From a virus: a stretch of DNA of 64,000 nt. A program made the translations under genes and the position numbers. Location of the stretch: the IMG/VR virus record IMGVR_UViG_3300013233_000773; one strand, given 5' to 3'. Below the pieces are notes generated by a model. That model saw only the letters and a list, made by a program, of their open reading frames with translations. It was not told where the DNA came from and did not search any database. Shown here in pieces: positions 17,212-35,053 of this stretch (the stretch's first letter is position 1; every line of letters begins with the position of its first letter).

Positions 17212-18363
17212 TCACGGCACAGAACGAAGCAGCTTCCAGCCGCGCCACCGCCGACCGACGCTCACCCTCAAGGGCATCATTAAGCCCCCGACACCCTCCA
17301 ACGGCCTGGCCACTATCTCCTGAAGCGACGGAAGTAGTTCTCCAATCGAGTTCTCTGGCGCGCAGAGGACGACCGAATCGTGAACCTCCGTCAACACGTT
17401 CTGTGGACACCTCCGCAGCAACCTGGCCATCACGGAATGCATGGCGTGCGCCACGGAGCCTTGAAACTGCGCATTGAACACGCTAAGCTCATTGCGGCCA
17501 TTCTCTCCCCCGACGCCATACCTACGCCCCAGGATCGTCTCCACGAAGCCCTCCGACCGCATCCTGGCAACCCTGTCCGCCATCCACTTCCTAAACTCCG
17601 GAAAAGGCTGAAAGACCGGATCGTCGGTCCTGAGCGAATAAAAGGAACGGAAGAAATCACGCTTGCACTGCTCCCTAGAGGGCTCGCCGAGGCACTCCGC
17701 TATCACGCTGTACGGATCACCCCTGGAGAACGCAGCGGCCATCGGCCCGTCCCCGGACATGAACGCAGCCATGCGCACGTCCGCAGCCGTCCAGTCGAGA
17801 CAAACGAACCAGTCATAATCATCCCGAACATGCCTGACGGCAGTCTCCCCGGTCATTCCCTGAACGTTGAAGCCAGTCGTCCTCGAACGGCCAGTATAGG
17901 TCCCAAGATCATAGTGGATGCCATCGACGCGCCTATATCCGTGCATGACCCCACGCTGCTGCAGAATCGCATACATGACTGAAGCCCTGCCCATCAACAC
18001 GCGCCACGGATCTTCACGGACGCTCCGGACAGACTCTACGGCGGCCCTCAACAACGACTTCCGGACCGACGCTGCGTCCCTGGCCCGCCCAGCCGCGACC
18101 GGCACGCACGACTCAACCAGCCCATGTCCGCCATGAAGCTCAAGACCAAACCCCAGCAAGTGCGTGACGCAGTCGTTACATAACGCCCCATCCTCGAGCA
18201 GCTCACGCACCCTCTGTACGCCATTCCTGACCTGCTTCAGCCTGAGACCAGTACCGGGAAGATACGCGTCTATGAACTCCACCCTGCCGTCCTCCACCAC
18301 GACGGACGACAATGGCCTAGGGTGATTCCTGCTCTTATCGAACAGCGTTACGACATGGCGCAT
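17212..18363 (-). CDS. Compact family A DNA polymerase (polymerase domain only)
   Basis: 'TYTGRS..GFNVQ', motif A 'LDWTAADVR', motif B 'REQCKRDFFRSFY', 'GFVETILGRR', 'FNAQFQGSVA', motif C 'EVHDSVV'. Confidence 0.8.
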   Translation of the reverse strand: MRHVVTLFDKSRNHPRPLSSVVVEDGRVEFIDAYLPGTGLRLKQVRNGVQRVRELLEDGALCNDCVTHLLGFGLELHGGHGLVESCVPVAAGRARDAASVRKSLLRAAVESVRSVREDPWRVLMGRASVMYAILQQRGVMHGYRRVDGIHYDLGTYTGRSRTTGFNVQGMTGETAVRHVRDDYDWFVCLDWTAADVRMAAFMSGDGPMAAAFSRGDPYSVIAECLGEPSREQCKRDFFRSFYSLRTDDPVFQPFPEFRKWMADRVARMRSEGFVETILGRRYGVGGENGRNELSVFNAQFQGSVAHAMHSVMARLLRRCPQNVLTEVHDSVVLCAPENSIGELLPSLQEIVARPLEGVGGLMMPLRVSVGRRWRGWKLLRSVP

Positions 18364-18372
18364 TACGCGCGA

Positions 18373-19089
18373 TCAAATACTCAGCAGACCACCAAGCCCT
18401 ACTTCGCCGACCCTACGGACTATCTCGTCGCTGCACTCTTTGGTCATGTGGTTCGCCCAATCTCCGACTATACCCTTCCTGGGCAAAACGGGATTGCCTT
18501 CCCATAGGCCAGGAACCCTCACTCCAGTAAGCTGCCTGTCCAAGAACGACGATACTCTCTTCATGACGTCGACGAATCGACGCTTCAGGTCCGTGTAACG
18601 CACCATGAGCACTCTTCCATCGGACGACCACGGCCTGACGTGCGCGATCCACCTGTCCACAAAGTCCTCCGACCTGATCCACGAATACGCTCCGTCGAAC
18701 GGCCACTCATATGGCCTGGTCCTAAGGGCAAACTCCTCGACCGACGAAGGTCTTGGAAATGCCTGGACCCCTACGGAACGGAAATAGAAGAACATACTGA
18801 CGATCACGTCCCTTGGATCGCGCACCACGTATATCGTGCGGAAGCGACCCAGCTCCTCTGAGAGATATTCGTACGCATGGTGCGACTTATATATCGTGCC
18901 CGGACTGCTCTTCCTGCAGAACAAAGCCGTCCTGTCGCGGTAACCCTCCTTCCATTCCAAGCCAGGATCAACGTAATCAACTATAGGAACGTCCACGTGC
19001 GCGGCAGGAAGCCCCAGATTGGCTGACAACGAGTTGATCATGAAGTGAGTTCCAGAACGCTCATGCGACGCGACCAGGACGCTGCCCAT
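18373..19089 (-). CDS. Sulfotransferase (Sulfotransfer_1-like)
   Basis: 5'-PSB 'SHERSGTHF', 'KSH', 3'-PB 'YVVRDPRDVIVS', 'RKGIVGDW'. Confidence 0.88.
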   Translation of the reverse strand: MGSVLVASHERSGTHFMINSLSANLGLPAAHVDVPIVDYVDPGLEWKEGYRDRTALFCRKSSPGTIYKSHHAYEYLSEELGRFRTIYVVRDPRDVIVSMFFYFRSVGVQAFPRPSSVEEFALRTRPYEWPFDGAYSWIRSEDFVDRWIAHVRPWSSDGRVLMVRYTDLKRRFVDVMKRVSSFLDRQLTGVRVPGLWEGNPVLPRKGIVGDWANHMTKECSDEIVRRVGEVGLGGLLSI

Positions 19090-28192: not shown

Positions 28193-29566
28193 CTAGTACT
28201 CGAAGACGAACCTCGCCCTGCGCAAGCCCCACTTCCTCACGTATCCGCGCTCGGCTGCAAGCTCCGCCTCCCTCATCCCCATCTTCCGGGCATGGTTGTA
28301 CATCGTCTTCTTGTGCATCACGAACCCGTCCCGGTCTACGTACCAGTATGAGCGACCAGACCACCCATCGAACTTCCAGTTGCACGCCCGGTACACCGAC
28401 CCAGAATGCCCGAACGTACCGTCCGCAAACGACAACAGCAGCCTAGTGGACGACCTGACGCCGCGCAGCATCCGCATCGACCTGGACAAGAACCAGCTCA
28501 GCAGATTTCTGTTCTCATATCCAGCCCTCCTGCACAGCCTGGTAAGCTCCCTCACCTCCCCAGGGCTCCGCCCGAGCCTGATCAGGCTCTCATTCCTCGT
28601 CACCCCGGCAAACGTGCACACCGCGACCAGTTCGCCATCCATCACGGCTCCGAACCTTATCTGGCTACGGCCATGGCCCAGCGAATAGGTATAGTGATAC
28701 TTCTGGATAAACTCCACGGCCTCACGGTTTCCTATCGGGACTACCGAAAGGTCCGACAGGTCCACGTGGACCATGCCCACGTCCGCACCCGTCCATGAGC
28801 GCACGAGCTCCACCACCTTGCCCCTACACAGGAACTCATGTTCCCATATCGTCCTGACCTTAAGCTCCGGAAAGTACCGCTCCACATAGGTCGTCTTCGC
28901 CTTGTCGTTCCTTACGTGCACCGGAGTGTTGTGGAAATAATCACCATTGCACTCTATCAGGACTCCATGATCGGGCAGAAAGCAGTCGAACGCATAATGC
29001 CCGATCCTGTGCTCCGGCACGTGCTCGACACCGAGCTCATCAAGGATCGCATAGAGCGTCCTCTGGATGCCTGAGATCCTCGGCATCGGAGCAAAGATGC
29101 CGGTCCCAGCCTCCCTCTGGGAGTCCAGGATCCTCCTTCTCTTGGCGCGGTATCCGTCGTCCAGCCAATACCTGCAACGAGCGGCGCAGACCCTCTGACG
29201 GTACCCCTCATCCTCTGCGAACTTCCTGCTAACCGTCTCTCCTATCCTCCTACGGACTTCCCCTGACATGGCCTCCCTACTGCGCCTGCTCCTCTCCTCG
29301 CCGGACAGTCCATCCCAGAACGCCCTGGATGCCCTAGACGCCCTCTCCCTGGCCTCCCTGGAGGACCAAGCCCTAGCCTGCGAGGACTTGCGCGCAGCGA
29401 CGACGACCGGATGCCTGCGGTAGCACTTAGGGCATAGGTAGGATCCCACGTTACACGCCTGTCTCCTGCACTTACGGCGGTGCTCCTTCGGGACCACGCG
29501 GTCCTCCCTGCCACACTCCGAGCAGCGCGCAGTGTTCCCGGACAGGCACTGGTCGAAGTCTACCAC
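28193..29566 (-). CDS. Vsr/DUF559-like endonuclease fused to Mom-like GNAT domain (Hef-like homing endonuclease)
   Basis: N-terminal Zn finger and basic helical repeats; 'AFDCFLP..VLIECNGDYFH..DKAK..IWEHE'; C-terminal 'FIQKYHY','ELTRLC','LSFADGTFGHSGSVYRACNW'. Confidence 0.75.
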   Translation of the reverse strand: MVDFDQCLSGNTARCSECGREDRVVPKEHRRKCRRQACNVGSYLCPKCYRRHPVVVAARKSSQARAWSSREARERASRASRAFWDGLSGEERSRRSREAMSGEVRRRIGETVSRKFAEDEGYRQRVCAARCRYWLDDGYRAKRRRILDSQREAGTGIFAPMPRISGIQRTLYAILDELGVEHVPEHRIGHYAFDCFLPDHGVLIECNGDYFHNTPVHVRNDKAKTTYVERYFPELKVRTIWEHEFLCRGKVVELVRSWTGADVGMVHVDLSDLSVVPIGNREAVEFIQKYHYTYSLGHGRSQIRFGAVMDGELVAVCTFAGVTRNESLIRLGRSPGEVRELTRLCRRAGYENRNLLSWFLSRSMRMLRGVRSSTRLLLSFADGTFGHSGSVYRACNWKFDGWSGRSYWYVDRDGFVMHKKTMYNHARKMGMREAELAAERGYVRKWGLRRARFVFEY

Positions 29567-32034
29567 AGCACCTGTCCCTCCGAGTACACGTCAAGTTCCT
29601 CCTCCGGAGAGGACGCCTCTCCGCGCCGGCTCAGGGGGACTATCACGGACCGAGGCCCTATCTTGAAGCTGTCCCTCTCCCTATCGTACACGACGTTCAT
29701 CCTGATCCCGGCTCCCTCCTGCAGGGCCCTCTTGTCGGACGAACCATAGGCGTCCGCCCACACGAAAACCCTAGCCGTCCGTATCCCGTCATTGACGTGC
29801 AGCACATAGAACTGATTGCCCGCCTTGGACGACCTACTCTCTATCTTCTCCACCACGCCCTCAAGCGTACCGCCGACCTTCGCCCTCTCGACCGTATGGC
29901 CATGTGACCGGAAGGCCTCCATCGGAGAGCTCCAATAGTGTCCGAGAAACTCCTTCTCCATCTCCAGACGCTCAGCCAGGGACCAGTCCGTCCCGACCGT
30001 GGACATGACCTGCCCCCTGGTAACCGTTATCTTAGGTCTCCACTTCGCGATCTTGGACGGCAGCTTCTTCCTCCTGGGATATAGCTTGAAGTACTCGCTC
30101 GCCTGCCTCGCGCGCTCCTTCTCTACCTTCTCCTGCGGCCACTCGAACTTGGCTTCTATCTCCCGGCGGAGAGCCGTTATCTCCTTTCCAGAGCAGTACT
30201 TGTAGAGATACCAGGTCCAGAGAGCCTTCCTGTTCGGATGGATGGAGTCGAACCCACCCAGCTTTATGAGCCTCTCGAAGATCCTCTTGTCCTTCCCGCA
30301 CCGCTCGACCATCTCGTCCACGTCACGGAAGGGACCACATACCGACGCAAGCTTCTCCGCCGCCTTGTCTCCAATTCCCTTGACGGACGCGAGGCCGGGC
30401 AAGACCTGGTCCCCACTGACGGTAAAGTCCTTCTCAAGGGAGTTGACGTCCATGGGGGCAAACTCCACGCCGTCCGACCTTGCCGAGCCCATGTAGCTGC
30501 TCATCTTATAGGCAGGACAGGCTGACAGGACTGCAGCCCACCATTCGGCCGGATAGTGCGCCTTGAGATACAGGCACCTGTAGGTCATGATGCTGTAGGC
30601 CACGGCATGGGACTTATTGAATGCGTATCTCCCAAAGGTAACCATCTGGTCCCACCATTTCCGCGCCTCCTCCTCGCCGAGCTCCTTGCCGGCCCCGGAC
30701 ATCCACCTCTCCTCGACCCCAGGAAGCTTGTCCAGCCACTTCTTGGAGACTATCTTGCGGGCCTTCTCCGCCTCAGGAACAGTGAACCTACCAATCTGGA
30801 TCCACACCGCAGTGAGCTGCTCCTGAAAGCAAATTATCCCATGCGTCTCCTCAAGGATGCGCACGATCCTAGGATCCATCCCTTTCCTCCAGGACCCCGA
30901 ATGATCATCGCGCCGCCTGATGTACTCCGGAATCATGTCCATCGGACCCGGACGACCGAGAGCATTATACACGATCAGGTCCCAGAAGTCCCTAACGCCA
31001 CCGTCCGAAATGATCCCCTTCTGGATGTCAGTCTCGATCTGGAATACAGAGTCCGTCCGCAGATCATTGCACATCCGGAGAGCCTCGACGTCGTTGAACG
31101 AGATCGGCTCCCTCCTCCCGTCCCTCTCAAGATATCCTGCGACCGGAAGATCGGACCTCGGATCCATCCCGTCCCAGACGACCAGGACGCCCCTATTGCG
31201 CAAGACAAGGTTCCCCGCCTGCCAGACATAGAACATCGTCTTCAAGCCGAGGACGTCGAACTTGATGAGCCCGAACTTCGAGAGCTGCATGCTCCGGCCC
31301 TCGGTCCACTGGCTCGTCCATGTCCCCTTCATCCTAGACAGGGGCACCACCCCACGCAGGTCCCTATCCGCAATCACGATCCCACCCGCATGCGTAGACT
31401 GCGCGCGTATCTTGCCCACGAGCCGAAAGGCCAGATCGACTATCTCCGGATGCTCACTCCTGTACCGCATAAACTCCTCAAGACGAGAAGCGTCCACATG
31501 AGCCTGCCTGCGCACCTCCGGATCCGGATCCTCTGCGCGCTCAACAAGGCCATCTATGTCCCCCAGCGACATGTCGTCGAACTCGTCCGGAAGACCCTTG
31601 GTCATCCTGGACACTGCACGCCAGTCCGCCCCGAGCGCACGCGCCACGTCCGTCAGAGCACTCCTTGGCTTATACGTCACCCAGTTTCCTATACTGCAGA
31701 CATGCACATACCTCTCCCTGGCATATTGCTTGATCGTCTCCCGCGCATGCGGCAAGAAGTCAAGGTCTATGTCAGGGAAGTCCGTGAGCCGCACCCATTC
31801 ATGCGAAACTGCCTCGGCCACGGGATCGACGGGAGTCATCCCAAGGAGAAACGGTATGACAAGGCCGTTCTGATTGTGTTCCCACCTACGCCCCTCAGAC
31901 ACGCACTCGGTCCAGTATGTCTCCGCGCCCTGCTTCGAAATCTCGGCGACCTCAGTCTGAAGACGCTCGACATACTCCCCACCCCTCACGGCAGCAGCCG
32001 CTGACGCTCTAGAGCACACCTCGTCCCAGTCCAT
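29560..32034 (-). CDS. dnaE: DNA polymerase III alpha subunit, catalytic/C-terminal part
   Basis: 'FPDIDLDF','STHAGGIVI','LIKFDVLGL','VFQIE','RPGPM','FQEQ','YAFNKSHAVAY','GLASVKGIG','EKEFLG' and a C-terminal OB fold. Confidence 0.92.
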   Translation of the reverse strand: MDWDEVCSRASAAAAVRGGEYVERLQTEVAEISKQGAETYWTECVSEGRRWEHNQNGLVIPFLLGMTPVDPVAEAVSHEWVRLTDFPDIDLDFLPHARETIKQYARERYVHVCSIGNWVTYKPRSALTDVARALGADWRAVSRMTKGLPDEFDDMSLGDIDGLVERAEDPDPEVRRQAHVDASRLEEFMRYRSEHPEIVDLAFRLVGKIRAQSTHAGGIVIADRDLRGVVPLSRMKGTWTSQWTEGRSMQLSKFGLIKFDVLGLKTMFYVWQAGNLVLRNRGVLVVWDGMDPRSDLPVAGYLERDGRREPISFNDVEALRMCNDLRTDSVFQIETDIQKGIISDGGVRDFWDLIVYNALGRPGPMDMIPEYIRRRDDHSGSWRKGMDPRIVRILEETHGIICFQEQLTAVWIQIGRFTVPEAEKARKIVSKKWLDKLPGVEERWMSGAGKELGEEEARKWWDQMVTFGRYAFNKSHAVAYSIMTYRCLYLKAHYPAEWWAAVLSACPAYKMSSYMGSARSDGVEFAPMDVNSLEKDFTVSGDQVLPGLASVKGIGDKAAEKLASVCGPFRDVDEMVERCGKDKRIFERLIKLGGFDSIHPNRKALWTWYLYKYCSGKEITALRREIEAKFEWPQEKVEKERARQASEYFKLYPRRKKLPSKIAKWRPKITVTRGQVMSTVGTDWSLAERLEMEKEFLGHYWSSPMEAFRSHGHTVERAKVGGTLEGVVEKIESRSSKAGNQFYVLHVNDGIRTARVFVWADAYGSSDKRALQEGAGIRMNVVYDRERDSFKIGPRSVIVPLSRRGEASSPEEELDVYSEGQVLW

Positions 32035-32505
32035 CTAGAACACCCCACTGAAGGACTCATTGCCCGCCCTGGCCGAGGTCACCAGCTCCTCACGCATCGA
32101 CTCCAGCTCATCCGGAGAAGGGATGACCGAACACCTCCCATATTCAAGGGACAGGTCGCGGACTGTCCAGACCAGACCCGGATCCTTCACCGCCTCGACC
32201 CGCCACGTGTCCACGAGCGTGCGCTCCAGGACCAGAGCGGCATAACTGCACGTTGTGCGCACCACCATAGTCGTCCCCGCCCGCGCGTCCTCCCCGACGC
32301 TCCTGAGGATATACTCCATGGCCTTCAGCTCAAGCTGTCTAGCCTTGATGACCATCCCGCCTGCATGGACGATGCGCCTGAACCCATGCTTACCGCATGC
32401 AGCCGACGCGCTGAACCACGCGCCGTATGGAGACTGCCTAAAGACCACTGCCCTTGCCTCAACCAGAGCTCCCGTTCCCGGCTTCACCACCTCCATCAGG
32501 TCCAT
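32035..32505 (-). CDS. RNase HI-fold protein, probably catalytically degenerate
   Basis: 'RQLELKAMEYIL...VVRTTCSYA..' resembles RNase HI N.xELxA / xTDSxY; start MDLME with GGAG RBS. Confidence 0.45.
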   Translation of the reverse strand: MDLMEVVKPGTGALVEARAVVFRQSPYGAWFSASAACGKHGFRRIVHAGGMVIKARQLELKAMEYILRSVGEDARAGTTMVVRTTCSYAALVLERTLVDTWRVEAVKDPGLVWTVRDLSLEYGRCSVIPSPDELESMREELVTSARAGNESFSGVF

Positions 32506-32908
32506 TTCGCTCCTCCAGAATTGATTGTATGCCTCCGACCGCCACCCCGGCGGACGACAGTACTCTTGCGGACCTACGGCACGCCGAGACAAGCCCACTC
32601 TTGCCCACCAGGAGTGCATCCAGTGAATCCACCGCGACCCGCCCGGCCACGGCCCCTATCGGACCACACCCCTGCGCAACCATCCTCTCCGCCAGGCCCC
32701 TCGCCACGGCACCGACCGGCCCGCACGTCACGTACTCCGCGTCAGCCCAGAACCTAGACTCGTCCCCGTCAAGATACGAGCGTACCAGGTCCGGCCACTT
32801 CGCGAGATATCCGGACGCCGCAGCCAGGCTCCCACAGGACGCCACAAGCAGTCCAATAGAATGCTCCGCCTCGGACAGCACCCTCCTGAACGAAACCTCA
32901 TCCACCAT
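32459..32908 (-). CDS. UPF0280/ApbE-like protein (short)
   Basis: Duplicated 'GPVGAVA'/'GPIGAVAG', resembling the UPF0280 GPMAAVAG motif. Confidence 0.4.
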   Translation of the reverse strand: MVDEVSFRRVLSEAEHSIGLLVASCGSLAAASGYLAKWPDLVRSYLDGDESRFWADAEYVTCGPVGAVARGLAERMVAQGCGPIGAVAGRVAVDSLDALLVGKSGLVSACRRSARVLSSAGVAVGGIQSILEERNGPDGGGEAGNGSSG

Positions 32909-32911
32909 TCC

Positions 32912-34258
32912 TCACTCCATCTTCACCTGCAGCATCCTGCCGCCCCTGTTCGGGCTCAGGAACCTGTTGAACGAAAGTCCCCACGCTATGGGATCCAGGG
33001 ACGTTATCCCCAGAAGCCAGCACACCAAGGACCCGCCCGCACTCCCCCTCGCCGGACCGATCGGCCAGCCCCTCCTATGGGAGCAGTCCACCAGGTCCTT
33101 AGTAATCAGGAAGTACGAGGCAAAGCCCTTCTCGACGAACCTCCTAAGCTCCAGGATCATCTGCTCCCGATAGGTCACCTCCAGGCCGTCCATCGTCGAA
33201 TACTTCGTATCATCCAGGTGAAGACCACGCCTCTTGAAGCCCTCCCACGCGGCCTGCACCAGGACCGGCACGTCGTTCTCAAGCCTAGGTAGCTTCGGCG
33301 AGACGTCCGGATCGAACGCCTCGCACATCTCCGCGACCAGCAGCGTCCCGTCACAGGCCTTCTCAAACTCCGCCAGCCCTACCCCGTCCGAATAGCCCTT
33401 CGTAAGGAAGGTCTTCCGAAGCTCCTCCCTCGTCTTGAAGAACTGCTCGTCCGAATTCACGTGGAAAAGCTCCGGATCGTCTACCGTGGTCCCCTGGTCT
33501 ATCGCCATCATCGTCTTCTGGACCTCGAAGTCACGCCGTTCGAGATAGTGGCAGTCGTTCGTCAGGACGGTCCGTATTCCGAACCGGCCGGCCAGCTCAA
33601 CAAGGGTCCTGAAGGCCTTCACGTCCCCAACCTCCTCGTCGAGGCACGGCATCTGCAGCTCGATGAAGTAGTTCTCACCGAACGCCTCCTTGAACATCTT
33701 GACGTACTCGACCGCGCCGCGGAACTCGCCGCCTGAGAGGTTATCCTGCCTGATCTCGTGAGCGACTGGACCGTTAAGGCATCCGGAGAGGACGATGAGT
33801 CCCTCGGAGTGCGCGGCCAGGTTCTCGAACCACACCCTGGGCTTGTAGAAGAATCCGTGCTTTATCGCATAGTTGTTTATCTTCAGGAGGTTGCCGTATC
33901 CGGTCATGTTCCTGCACAGGACGGTAATGTGCCTGTTCCTGCGCATCCTGGCGTTCAGTCCGCGCTGCGTCTCGAGCAGGTCCTTGACCTTTCCTCCGGA
34001 CTCGACCAGCTTCCTCCTGCGCTGCTCGTAGTCGTTGTAGTACAGCTCGCACCCCGCTATGAACTTCACGGAGTGCTCAGTTGCCGAGATGTGCGCGTCC
34101 GGGATGCTGCTCATCGTCCCGTGCTCGGTTATGGCGAAGGCCGGCCACCCCCGTTCTGCGCAGGCACCGAAGTAGGCCTCTGGTTCGGCGACCCCGTCCA
34201 GCATGCTGAAGATGGTATGGTTGTGCAGGTGCACGAACTGTTCAGGAGCAGCGTCCAT
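32912..34258 (-). CDS. dnaE: DNA polymerase III alpha subunit, N-terminal PHP part
   Basis: 'FVHLHNHTIFSMLDG','ITEHG','GCELY','LSGCLNG','TNDCHY','ARGSAGGSLVCWLLGITSLDP','FNRFLSPNR', then stop. Confidence 0.92.
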   Translation of the reverse strand: MDAAPEQFVHLHNHTIFSMLDGVAEPEAYFGACAERGWPAFAITEHGTMSSIPDAHISATEHSVKFIAGCELYYNDYEQRRRKLVESGGKVKDLLETQRGLNARMRRNRHITVLCRNMTGYGNLLKINNYAIKHGFFYKPRVWFENLAAHSEGLIVLSGCLNGPVAHEIRQDNLSGGEFRGAVEYVKMFKEAFGENYFIELQMPCLDEEVGDVKAFRTLVELAGRFGIRTVLTNDCHYLERRDFEVQKTMMAIDQGTTVDDPELFHVNSDEQFFKTREELRKTFLTKGYSDGVGLAEFEKACDGTLLVAEMCEAFDPDVSPKLPRLENDVPVLVQAAWEGFKRRGLHLDDTKYSTMDGLEVTYREQMILELRRFVEKGFASYFLITKDLVDCSHRRGWPIGPARGSAGGSLVCWLLGITSLDPIAWGLSFNRFLSPNRGGRMLQVKME

Positions 34259-34339
34259 GACGGGTAAAATACTCCGCCAGTGACAAAGATAGTATGGAGC
34301 ACGGGAAAGTCCACTGAACCGGCACGTGGAGACACCTAG

Positions 34340-34684
34340 ATGAGTAGCGTCGATGGAATGGGAGCCAGGGGCGTCGTCCGTGCATGGGCAAGGTACGACG
34401 TGAAGAATAACGTTATTGGAAATTCATATCGGCTTCTCTCCATAACGGACGGCGACACCGGACAGGTTTCGTTCAACTGGGACGTGAGCTTTTCGGCCAC
34501 GGACTATGTCACCGTGATAGGAACATCGTACCAGAACGGAGTCATCTTCAATGCGTTCGGAACTCTTCCTGGAAATCCATCACAGACTGTTACTGCGACG
34601 ACCGTTCAGGTCAGAAGGGCTTCCGATGGAGCACTGGTGGAGACTGACAACATGAACGTCGCCGTTCTCGGGGATTTGGTATAA
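34340..34684 (+). CDS. Tail-fibre tip-like domain protein
   Basis: 'VRAWARYD...SITDGDTGQVSFNW..FSATDY' motif of phage fibre C-terminal domains. Confidence 0.6.
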   Translation: MSSVDGMGARGVVRAWARYDVKNNVIGNSYRLLSITDGDTGQVSFNWDVSFSATDYVTVIGTSYQNGVIFNAFGTLPGNPSQTVTATTVQVRRASDGALVETDNMNVAVLGDLV

Positions 34685-34717
34685 CACCAGTCAAGACCGA
34701 CAAAGCGAGGATCAAGA

Positions 34718-35053
34718 ATGTCATCGGCGGCACATGGAGCTGGTTCTATAGGAATAACTAAGGCGTGGTGTTCGTGGAACGGCGACACCACCGCCATCTA
34801 TTCCAGTCTAAACGTGTCCAGCGTCACGGACTCTGACGTAGGAATCTACTCAATCAGCTTTACAATACCATTCAAGGACACCAACTACGCAGCAGTCGTG
34901 TCCGCAGGATATGACGAAGGAGTAGTCTTCGATGCAGGATTCAGTCTTTCCCAGCACGGCAATAACCTAGTCACACAAGTTGAATGTAGAGCCAGAAGGG
35001 GCTCCACGAAATATGATCCTGACAACAACACCGTCGTGGTCTACTCGACCTGA
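34718..35053 (+). CDS. Tail-fibre tip-like domain protein (paralog of previous)
   Basis: 'TKAWCSWNG...SLNVSSVTDSDVGIYSISFTIPFKDTNYAAVV'. Confidence 0.65.
   Translation: MSSAAHGAGSIGITKAWCSWNGDTTAIYSSLNVSSVTDSDVGIYSISFTIPFKDTNYAAVVSAGYDEGVVFDAGFSLSQHGNNLVTQVECRARRGSTKYDPDNNTVVVYST

Follow-up and report, generated by a model that had tools for sequence, protein, structure and literature searches.

To our knowledge, all C-family replicases studied so far carry their catalytic core on one chain. In cyanobacteria, DnaE-n and DnaE-c are joined by trans-splicing, as recounted in PMC3919608 (citing Caspi et al. 2003). A minimal split form of the DNA polymerase III alpha subunit was described computationally in group 2.2 jumbo phages (Cronobacter phage GAP32, Klebsiella phage RaK2), where it lacks a PHP domain, is encoded by genes that are far apart, and occurs alongside a family B polymerase; it was proposed to model the ancestral enzyme (Iyer et al. 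2021, PMC7824862). That computational note on a minimal form is the only published natural DnaE-type split that does not involve an intein. Finally, PhiKZ-like chimalliviruses are reported in a preprint to have a family B polymerase made of two stably associated polypeptides, DNAP-N and DNAP-C, together with an RNase H-clamp protein called Rhc (Basu et al. 2026, PMC13648687).

Here we analyze a DnaE that is encoded in two pieces on a stretch of 64,000 nucleotides (the window) from the virus record IMGVR_UViG_3300013233_000773, a 140.5-kb fragment estimated to be 38% complete. All positions given below are those of the window. One gene, N, encodes a PHP domain and one half of the DnaE palm, and a second gene, C, encodes a degenerate second copy of part of that half followed by the remainder of the polymerase. 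Motif conservation, the distribution of the split among relatives, and a model of the complex together make it likely that N and C are two subunits of one DnaE-type replicative polymerase that assembles non-covalently.

Division of the DnaE palm between genes N and C

The two genes and their recognizable parts are the following:

32912..34258, minus strand: gene N, 448 residues; PHP exonuclease domain and the N-terminal half of the DnaE palm, which binds deoxynucleoside triphosphate (dNTP)
33548..34231, minus strand: PHP domain of N, with nine metal-ligand positions (H12, H14, D21, H46, E71, H110, C160, D235, H237)
32945..33259, minus strand: palm fragment of N (residues 334-438), with helices, a strand, R404-G405-S406, a helix, and F430-N-R432-FLSPN-R438; positions 4-98 of PF07733
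32915..32944, minus strand: clade-specific C-terminal tail of N, GGRMLQVKME, present beyond the end of matches to fused DnaEs
29560..32034, minus strand: gene C, 824 residues; degenerate palm duplicate, magnesium-binding palm half, thumb, fingers, helix-hairpin-helix (HhH) module, and C-terminal region
31804..31977, minus strand: degenerate palm duplicate of C (residues 20-77), without the strand/RGS loop and the FERF-type arginines
31759..31776, minus strand: catalytic strand P87-D88-I-D90-L-D92, invariant in 68 relatives and aligned with PDIDTDF of Thermus aquaticus (Taq) alpha
31246..31263, minus strand: K258-F-D260-V-L262-G263 with the third catalytic aspartate, aligned with KMDFLGL of Taq alpha
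30688..31107, minus strand: fingers domain (C residues 310-449; PF17657, E 1.2e-25)
30220..30471, minus strand: HhH DNA-binding module (C residues 522-605; PF14579, E 9.4e-16)

The initial annotation of the window, made by reading the letters alone, had described N as a PHP domain with apparently intact metal ligands, followed by RGS and FNRFLSPNR, that stops just before the position of PDID, and closer analysis bore this out. The PHP domain was matched by PF02811 over N residues 10-202 (E 5.5e-36), and all nine ligand positions are occupied by the same residues as in the aligned DnaE1 of Mycobacterium tuberculosis (Mtb) and are invariant in 76 relatives. Because these ligands are invariant, N most likely supplies proofreading besides half of the palm. 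Invariance in the 76 N relatives (50-64% identity) extends to R404, G405, S406, G409, S410, R432, and R438, and the palm fragment is the best-conserved part of the protein, with a mean pairwise identity of 0.64. N covers PF07733 at profile positions 4-98 only, and it was aligned to residues 6-417 of Mtb DnaE1 and 82-396 of E. coli alpha among the solved structures. Its alignments to every fused DnaE end at N residue 438-441. The tail that follows has a pattern common to all split relatives, RGG-x-(M/L)L-x-V-x-M-(E/D), and a mean pairwise identity of 0.58. The predicted local distance difference test score (pLDDT) of the AlphaFold2 (AF2) monomer model of N is 90 except at residues 433-448, which are disordered, with values below 50 in the tail. 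The idea that this tail, disordered as it is in the monomer model, is a degenerate copy of the aspartate strand (MLQVKME versus MPDIDID) was set aside as conjecture.

Gene C covers PF07733 at positions 69-260, followed by the fingers and HhH profiles, and was aligned to residues 317-899 of E. coli alpha and 428-950 of Taq alpha. The alignments of N and C to solved structures therefore overlap such that about 80 residues of the canonical enzyme are encoded twice. The same is seen with the fused phage DnaE family phrog_405, of which N covers 42-439 and C covers 361-1054, so that 361-439 is covered by both. When N340-448 and C1-110 were compared profile to profile with hhalign, N362-429 aligned with C20-77 (E 4e-6, probability 87%); direct BLASTP of N against C gave a weak match (E 0.02, 26% identity), and the PF07733 match to the C protein of several relatives already starts at profile position 5-16. 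On the strength of these comparisons, the duplication of the N/C junction exceeds chance.

What the second copy has lost is complementary to what N has kept. In alignments with fused phage DnaEs, a 10-residue deletion in C removes the strand and the RGS/GS loop while the flanking helices are kept, and C has no conserved arginine at the FERF-type loop. Nonetheless, the protein continues into PDIDLD and KFD, as the initial annotation had also stated, and P87, D88, D90, D92, K258, and D260 are invariant in 68 C relatives (41-56% identity), as are L262 and G263. The mean pairwise identity of C20-77 is 0.52, compared with 0.52-0.55 for the catalytic palm, and Q35, N54, and P71 are invariant. Judged by this conservation, the C duplicate is under selection. 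All components of a DnaE-type enzyme are thus present (PHP, a GS-loop palm with three aspartates, fingers, and HhH), with the palm motifs divided between the genes. The catalytic core does not lie on one polypeptide but on the products of two open reading frames (ORFs), both in the window and in all close relatives.

Intein halves had been reported missing, and indeed no Hint or intein Pfam match was found in N or C. N ends with its conserved 10-residue tail and C starts with the homologous duplicate, neither of which resembles a split-intein half. These observations bear on the possibility that the two halves are covalently joined, after translation or after transcription, by a splicing element that was not recognized. 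Cyanobacterial DnaE is the best-known example of a split-intein host, and copies of the phage genes in relatives carry inteins at other sites, both of which count in favor of joining. However, the N tail lacks an intein N-terminal block, the start of C is not a 35-residue intein C-half, and a joined product would hold about 60 palm residues twice. Moreover, an Rfam scan of positions 29000-35000 gave one chance-level match only, so no intron is indicated, and the gap is filled by conserved ORFs. Covalent joining is therefore considered very improbable.

A structural model was built from N(1-448) and C(1-540), each with its own alignment. It scored 0.82, whereas the best of three controls scored 0.00; the score mark applied to such models is reached by 58 of 80 solved complexes and by 2 of 110 mismatched pairs. 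The runs agreed with one another in no less than 96% of contacts, and partner pLDDT was at least 89. In the model, the strand and RGS of N (398-409) and its loop and tail (431-448) are in contact with the fingers of C, with its aspartate strand (C78-94), and with C221-262. As in intact DnaE, helix 385-393 of N packs against helix 100-105 of C. C27-67 also takes part in the interface. All of N431-448 falls within the predicted interface, which, given the disorder of the tail in the N monomer, fits a tail that becomes ordered only on C.

According to the mechanism we propose, N would contribute 3'-5' exonuclease activity through its PHP domain and, as the dNTP-binding half of the palm, a strand, the RGS loop, a helix, and the FxRFLxPxR loop. 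C would contribute all three aspartates, two of them on one strand, together with thumb, fingers, and DNA-binding modules. Since the palm residues are divided between the proteins, the polymerase site would form only at the N-C interface. The overlapping junction could be the scar of gene fission from an intact DnaE by partial duplication, after which each copy would have kept what the other had lost. Conservation and the model further suggest that the C duplicate and the N tail were retained as docking elements. An active site assembled in trans was one of two readings offered in the initial annotation, and motif invariance, the clade-wide split described below, and the complex model with its controls all point towards it. 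The other reading, that N is a dedicated proofreading subunit, survives in part: it is compatible with assembly in trans, and the PHP ligands are invariant, but N also carries half of the palm.

A different division of labor can be envisioned in which C is a self-sufficient polymerase that uses other dNTP-binding residues, while N is a separate PHP exonuclease or phosphoesterase that docks onto C or works elsewhere. The invariant PHP ligands give N an enzymatic role of its own, N and C are encoded 7-16 kb apart in some relatives, and proofreading in E. coli is done by a separate subunit, epsilon. On the other hand, the best-conserved part of N is the palm fragment with RGS, R432, and R438, for which a pure exonuclease would have no need. 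C, for its part, lacks the core strand and GS loop of the nucleotidyltransferase fold and has no conserved arginine replacing those of the FERF loop, and in the complex model it is the N strand and GS loop that lie against the aspartate strand of C. We therefore regard a self-sufficient C as improbable, and favor a polymerase shared between N and C.

Distribution of the divided genes among phage relatives

N-type and C-type proteins were searched for among 5.8 billion proteins. The best 120 N-type clusters all have lengths of 427-632 residues, a PHP domain, and a partial palm (47-64% identity), and none of the best 120 C-type clusters has a PHP domain. Among representatives at 50% identity, the top ~22 matches to N all end at the tail, the longer ones having internal insertions; beyond them, the matches drop abruptly to fused DnaEs of 1000-1600 residues at 33-41% identity. 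C follows 0.84-2.7 kb downstream of N in eleven IMG/VR contigs (L005-L014 plus L016 and L017), the spacing in the window being 877 bp with two genes between, and the distance is 16.5 kb in L015. Three relatives that are complete according to CheckV (341, 408, and 371 kb, two of the three with terminal repeats) contain exactly two PF07733 matches, N and C. As judged from these clusters and genomes, the split DnaE is fixed in a clade of ~350-400 kb phages.

These results settle two points raised in the initial annotation. It had proposed checking whether the breakpoint is conserved in related phages, and the same split was found in at least 120 metagenomic protein clusters of each half and in the complete relatives. 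It had also named misassembly as a possible undoing of its interpretation, and this is contradicted by the occurrence of the same architecture in more than 100 independent assemblies. The window does derive from just one metagenomic contig, and two such ORFs could in principle arise by misassembly or from a gene that was broken recently and is decaying. Against either, the catalytic residues are invariant across the independent assemblies, and the start and stop codons are tightly coupled and accompanied by ribosome-binding sites, leaving this explanation with next to no probability.

The split DnaE seems to be the main replicase of the clade, based on the polymerase genes detected. Family B polymerase (PF00136) is absent from the three complete relatives and from the 140-kb record of the window; besides N and C, the complete relatives showed only a small family A-like ORF. 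No match to the beta clamp (PF02767) or to T4 gp45 (PF09116) was found in the three complete relatives.

Several points weigh against a replicase whose active site is shared by N and C. The score of the complex may reflect memory, because structures of intact DnaE have been solved, and it would then report likeness, not binding. The placement of C20-77 was read from a contact list. The functions given to RGS, the arginines, and the aspartates derive from the literature on DnaE of E. coli, Taq, and Mtb. Lastly, the window encodes a family A-like ORF of 383 residues (17212-18363, minus strand) that matches the last ~135 positions of PF00476 only, and each of the five relatives checked has an equivalent ORF of 381-450 residues at a distance of 8-15 kb from its DnaE genes. 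The conservation of this ORF makes another polymerase activity possible.

Both genes have been interrupted or altered further in individual relatives. Gene N of L014 (9100-10260) has an additional break located precisely at RG|S. Its upstream portion terminates in ...FAPRG, with a cysteine and Hint-like sequence next. Stop codons and a different reading frame come between this and the second portion, in which a stretch ending ...NGVFSSN leads into SAGGSLV. The arrangement resembles a split intein or "fractured gene" placed within the dNTP-binding motif; the Pfam matches are weak (Hint, E 1.4e-3; Intein_splicing, E 2.2e-4). Functionally constrained positions are the usual homing sites of inteins, and the intein-type break in L014 was counted in favor of a polymerase shared between N and C.

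Changes in gene C were seen in three other relatives. A Hint-like sequence interrupts the gene in L016 (4700-5450) between the duplicate and the aspartate strand, and the resumed frame reads FPDI-stop-IDIDF, with an in-frame stop within the catalytic motif. In L012 (10316-14098), gene C encodes 1261 residues, with an insertion of ~470 residues between the fingers and HhH that has no Pfam match and no intein match, and so was not called an intein. The C-type gene of L027 (G010:C1:17261-20737, from the L015 genome) starts at the aspartate strand (...SWDIDTDFLP) without a duplicate, and adjoins a nuclease-Mom gene like the one at 28193-29566 of the window. From such neighborhoods, homing-type nuclease genes seem to accompany gene C repeatedly.

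The genes between N and C and the surrounding locus

The neighbors of N and C in the window are:

32459..32908, minus strand: gene X, 149 residues, helical, with a KWPD motif
32035..32505, minus strand: RNase H-fold gene, ~156 residues; a GGAGGA site precedes its start at 32505
28193..29566, minus strand: nuclease-Mom fusion gene of the homing-endonuclease type (PF25680 Mom, phrog_559, phrog_3339); context only

N, X, the RNase H-fold gene, and C are four minus-strand genes arranged head to tail in the same orientation. The ATG of X lies 3 nucleotides past the stop of N, and the ATG of C abuts the stop of the RNase H-like gene. From this tight packing, the four genes look co-expressed. Predicted promoters and terminators were no more numerous than in shuffled sequence. 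The nuclease-Mom fusion gene lies directly downstream of C and is not part of the polymerase.

Two unrelated genes were said in the initial annotation to separate the parts of DnaE. Their number was correct, but they are not an arbitrary pair, because both are conserved at the same position in relatives. Homologues of X with the KWPD motif occupy this position in L005-L017, occasionally with extra genes alongside, and the RNase H-like gene adjoins N in L015 even though C lies 16.5 kb away. Protein X had no match in Pfam, PHROG, or the ESM Atlas. The RNase H-like copy of the window had no Pfam or PHROG match, and its relatives gave weak matches to PF00075 and PF13456. Its AF2 model (pLDDT 70) retrieved archaeal RNase HI as top Foldseek matches (2ehg, with a template modeling (TM) score of 0.62, and 3aly), with TM scores up to 0.62-0.65. 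The protein thus has the RNase HI fold but not the four catalytic carboxylates (D-E-D-D): in a low-identity alignment, all 10 aligned members have S or T at the position of the third catalytic aspartate, and the first catalytic position holds E in the window copy but is missing from several other members. By these substitutions, the RNase H-fold protein may be a non-catalytic accessory subunit.

Farther downstream, the window encodes RecA, a DnaB-like helicase, the family A-like ORF, and a gp32-like protein. With RecA, the DnaB-like helicase, and the gp32-like protein as neighbors, the locus is therefore part of a replication module. A sulfotransferase-domain protein (PF00685, E 1e-23; 18373-19089, minus strand) is also encoded inside this replication and recombination cluster.

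Origin of the split and comparison with known two-part polymerases

A second, more distant split group was found in L018, L022, L024, and L025 and in the representatives P0280, P0289, and P0302. Its members also have the RGG tail on N and a degenerate duplicate at the start of C, and their two genes are 7-10 kb apart. A tree of the N domain was built with IQ-TREE with the tail left out, and the groups tested were named after the tree had been seen. The clade of the window is monophyletic (support 99-100). The second split group encloses a fused DnaE, LR756511, and a supported branch separates it from the window clade. This fused protein (L036; LR756511.1, 330079-347350), from a 595-kb uncultured phage, is a single-junction DnaE that shares 51% identity with the N proteins of the second group. 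The RGG tail and the form of the duplicate, being shared by both groups, would fit a single origin of the split forms. When a single origin of all split forms was tested, it was rejected (approximately unbiased test, p 0.0003), the rejection being marginal (p 0.03) with the fused LR756511 included. The tree suggests that the FERF/PDxDxD seam was broken more than once, or that re-fusion occurred.

The GAP32 and RaK2 palm pieces, too divergent for the BLAST searches made here, were located by a profile scan of both genomes. In each, an ORF of 172-188 residues (GAP32, L039:1168-1734; RaK2, L040:1219-1737) matches PF07733 at positions 19-96 only. The pieces end ...DLDVNEFLKW/Y, just after the FERFL-equivalent motif, at PF07733 position 95-96 compared with 98 for N, so that they share their seam with gene N. 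No C-type partner was found in GAP32 or RaK2 by PF07733 at useful significance. More speculatively, and with the odds against it, the seam could be a recurrent fission point that broke independently in at least two huge-phage lineages and possibly also in that of GAP32 and RaK2, each time through partial duplication and then complementary loss. The duplicate and the RGG tail would in that case serve as a non-covalent "zipper" in place of the peptide bond, and the replicase core would comprise four proteins, with X and the RNase H-fold protein as additional subunits.

The DnaE described here is of full size, includes a PHP domain presumably used for proofreading, and apparently builds its active site from two subunits. 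Because the junction is duplicated, such splits appear to derive from intact genes and not to be primordial. The locus would then illustrate clearly how a gene can split in nature through duplication and complementary degeneration. It also bears on how well a Pol-beta-like palm tolerates a cut between its nucleotide-binding and metal-binding halves, and the seam suggests a natural split point for engineered two-part polymerases.

Among known systems, fused phage DnaEs (phrog_405; those of Streptomyces, Mycobacterium, and Pseudomonas phages; LR756511) have the same domains in the same order, but they are single polypeptides with one copy of the junction and are 26-34% identical to the window proteins. 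Searches for the split form among GenBank phages returned fused forms only, and blastn with the 7-kb region had no match there. Reviews of bacterial DnaE mentioned only intein-mediated splits and frameshift fragments. The cyanobacterial enzyme resembles that of the window in that two separate genes encode DnaE. However, its split-intein halves ligate into one chain, whereas the window junction is duplicated and has no intein, and the cyanobacterial break lies elsewhere in the protein. In fractured genes, reportedly described by Dassa and colleagues in 2009, a free-standing gene sits between the halves of a split intein. The L014 gene N is similar in that intein halves, separated by stop codons and a different frame, interrupt it at RG|S, but that break is separate and second, and the N/C break in the window has no intein.

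The PhiKZ polymerase is an analogy only: a jumbo-phage polymerase made as two polypeptides plus an RNase H-domain protein. It belongs to family B and not C. Its Rhc includes a clamp-like domain; by contrast, the RNase H-fold protein described here is small (~125-156 residues) and lacks one catalytic aspartate. The closest parallel is the minimal form of GAP32 and RaK2. There too the palm is divided, without an intein, into an NTP-binding piece and a piece that binds magnesium and template, and the likeness lies in the position of the seam. Unlike that minimal form, the window enzyme has the full size of a DnaE: its PHP site is intact, and fingers and HhH are present. Its complete relatives have no family B polymerase. 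Its halves lie 877 bp apart with a conserved cassette between them, and its junction is duplicated.

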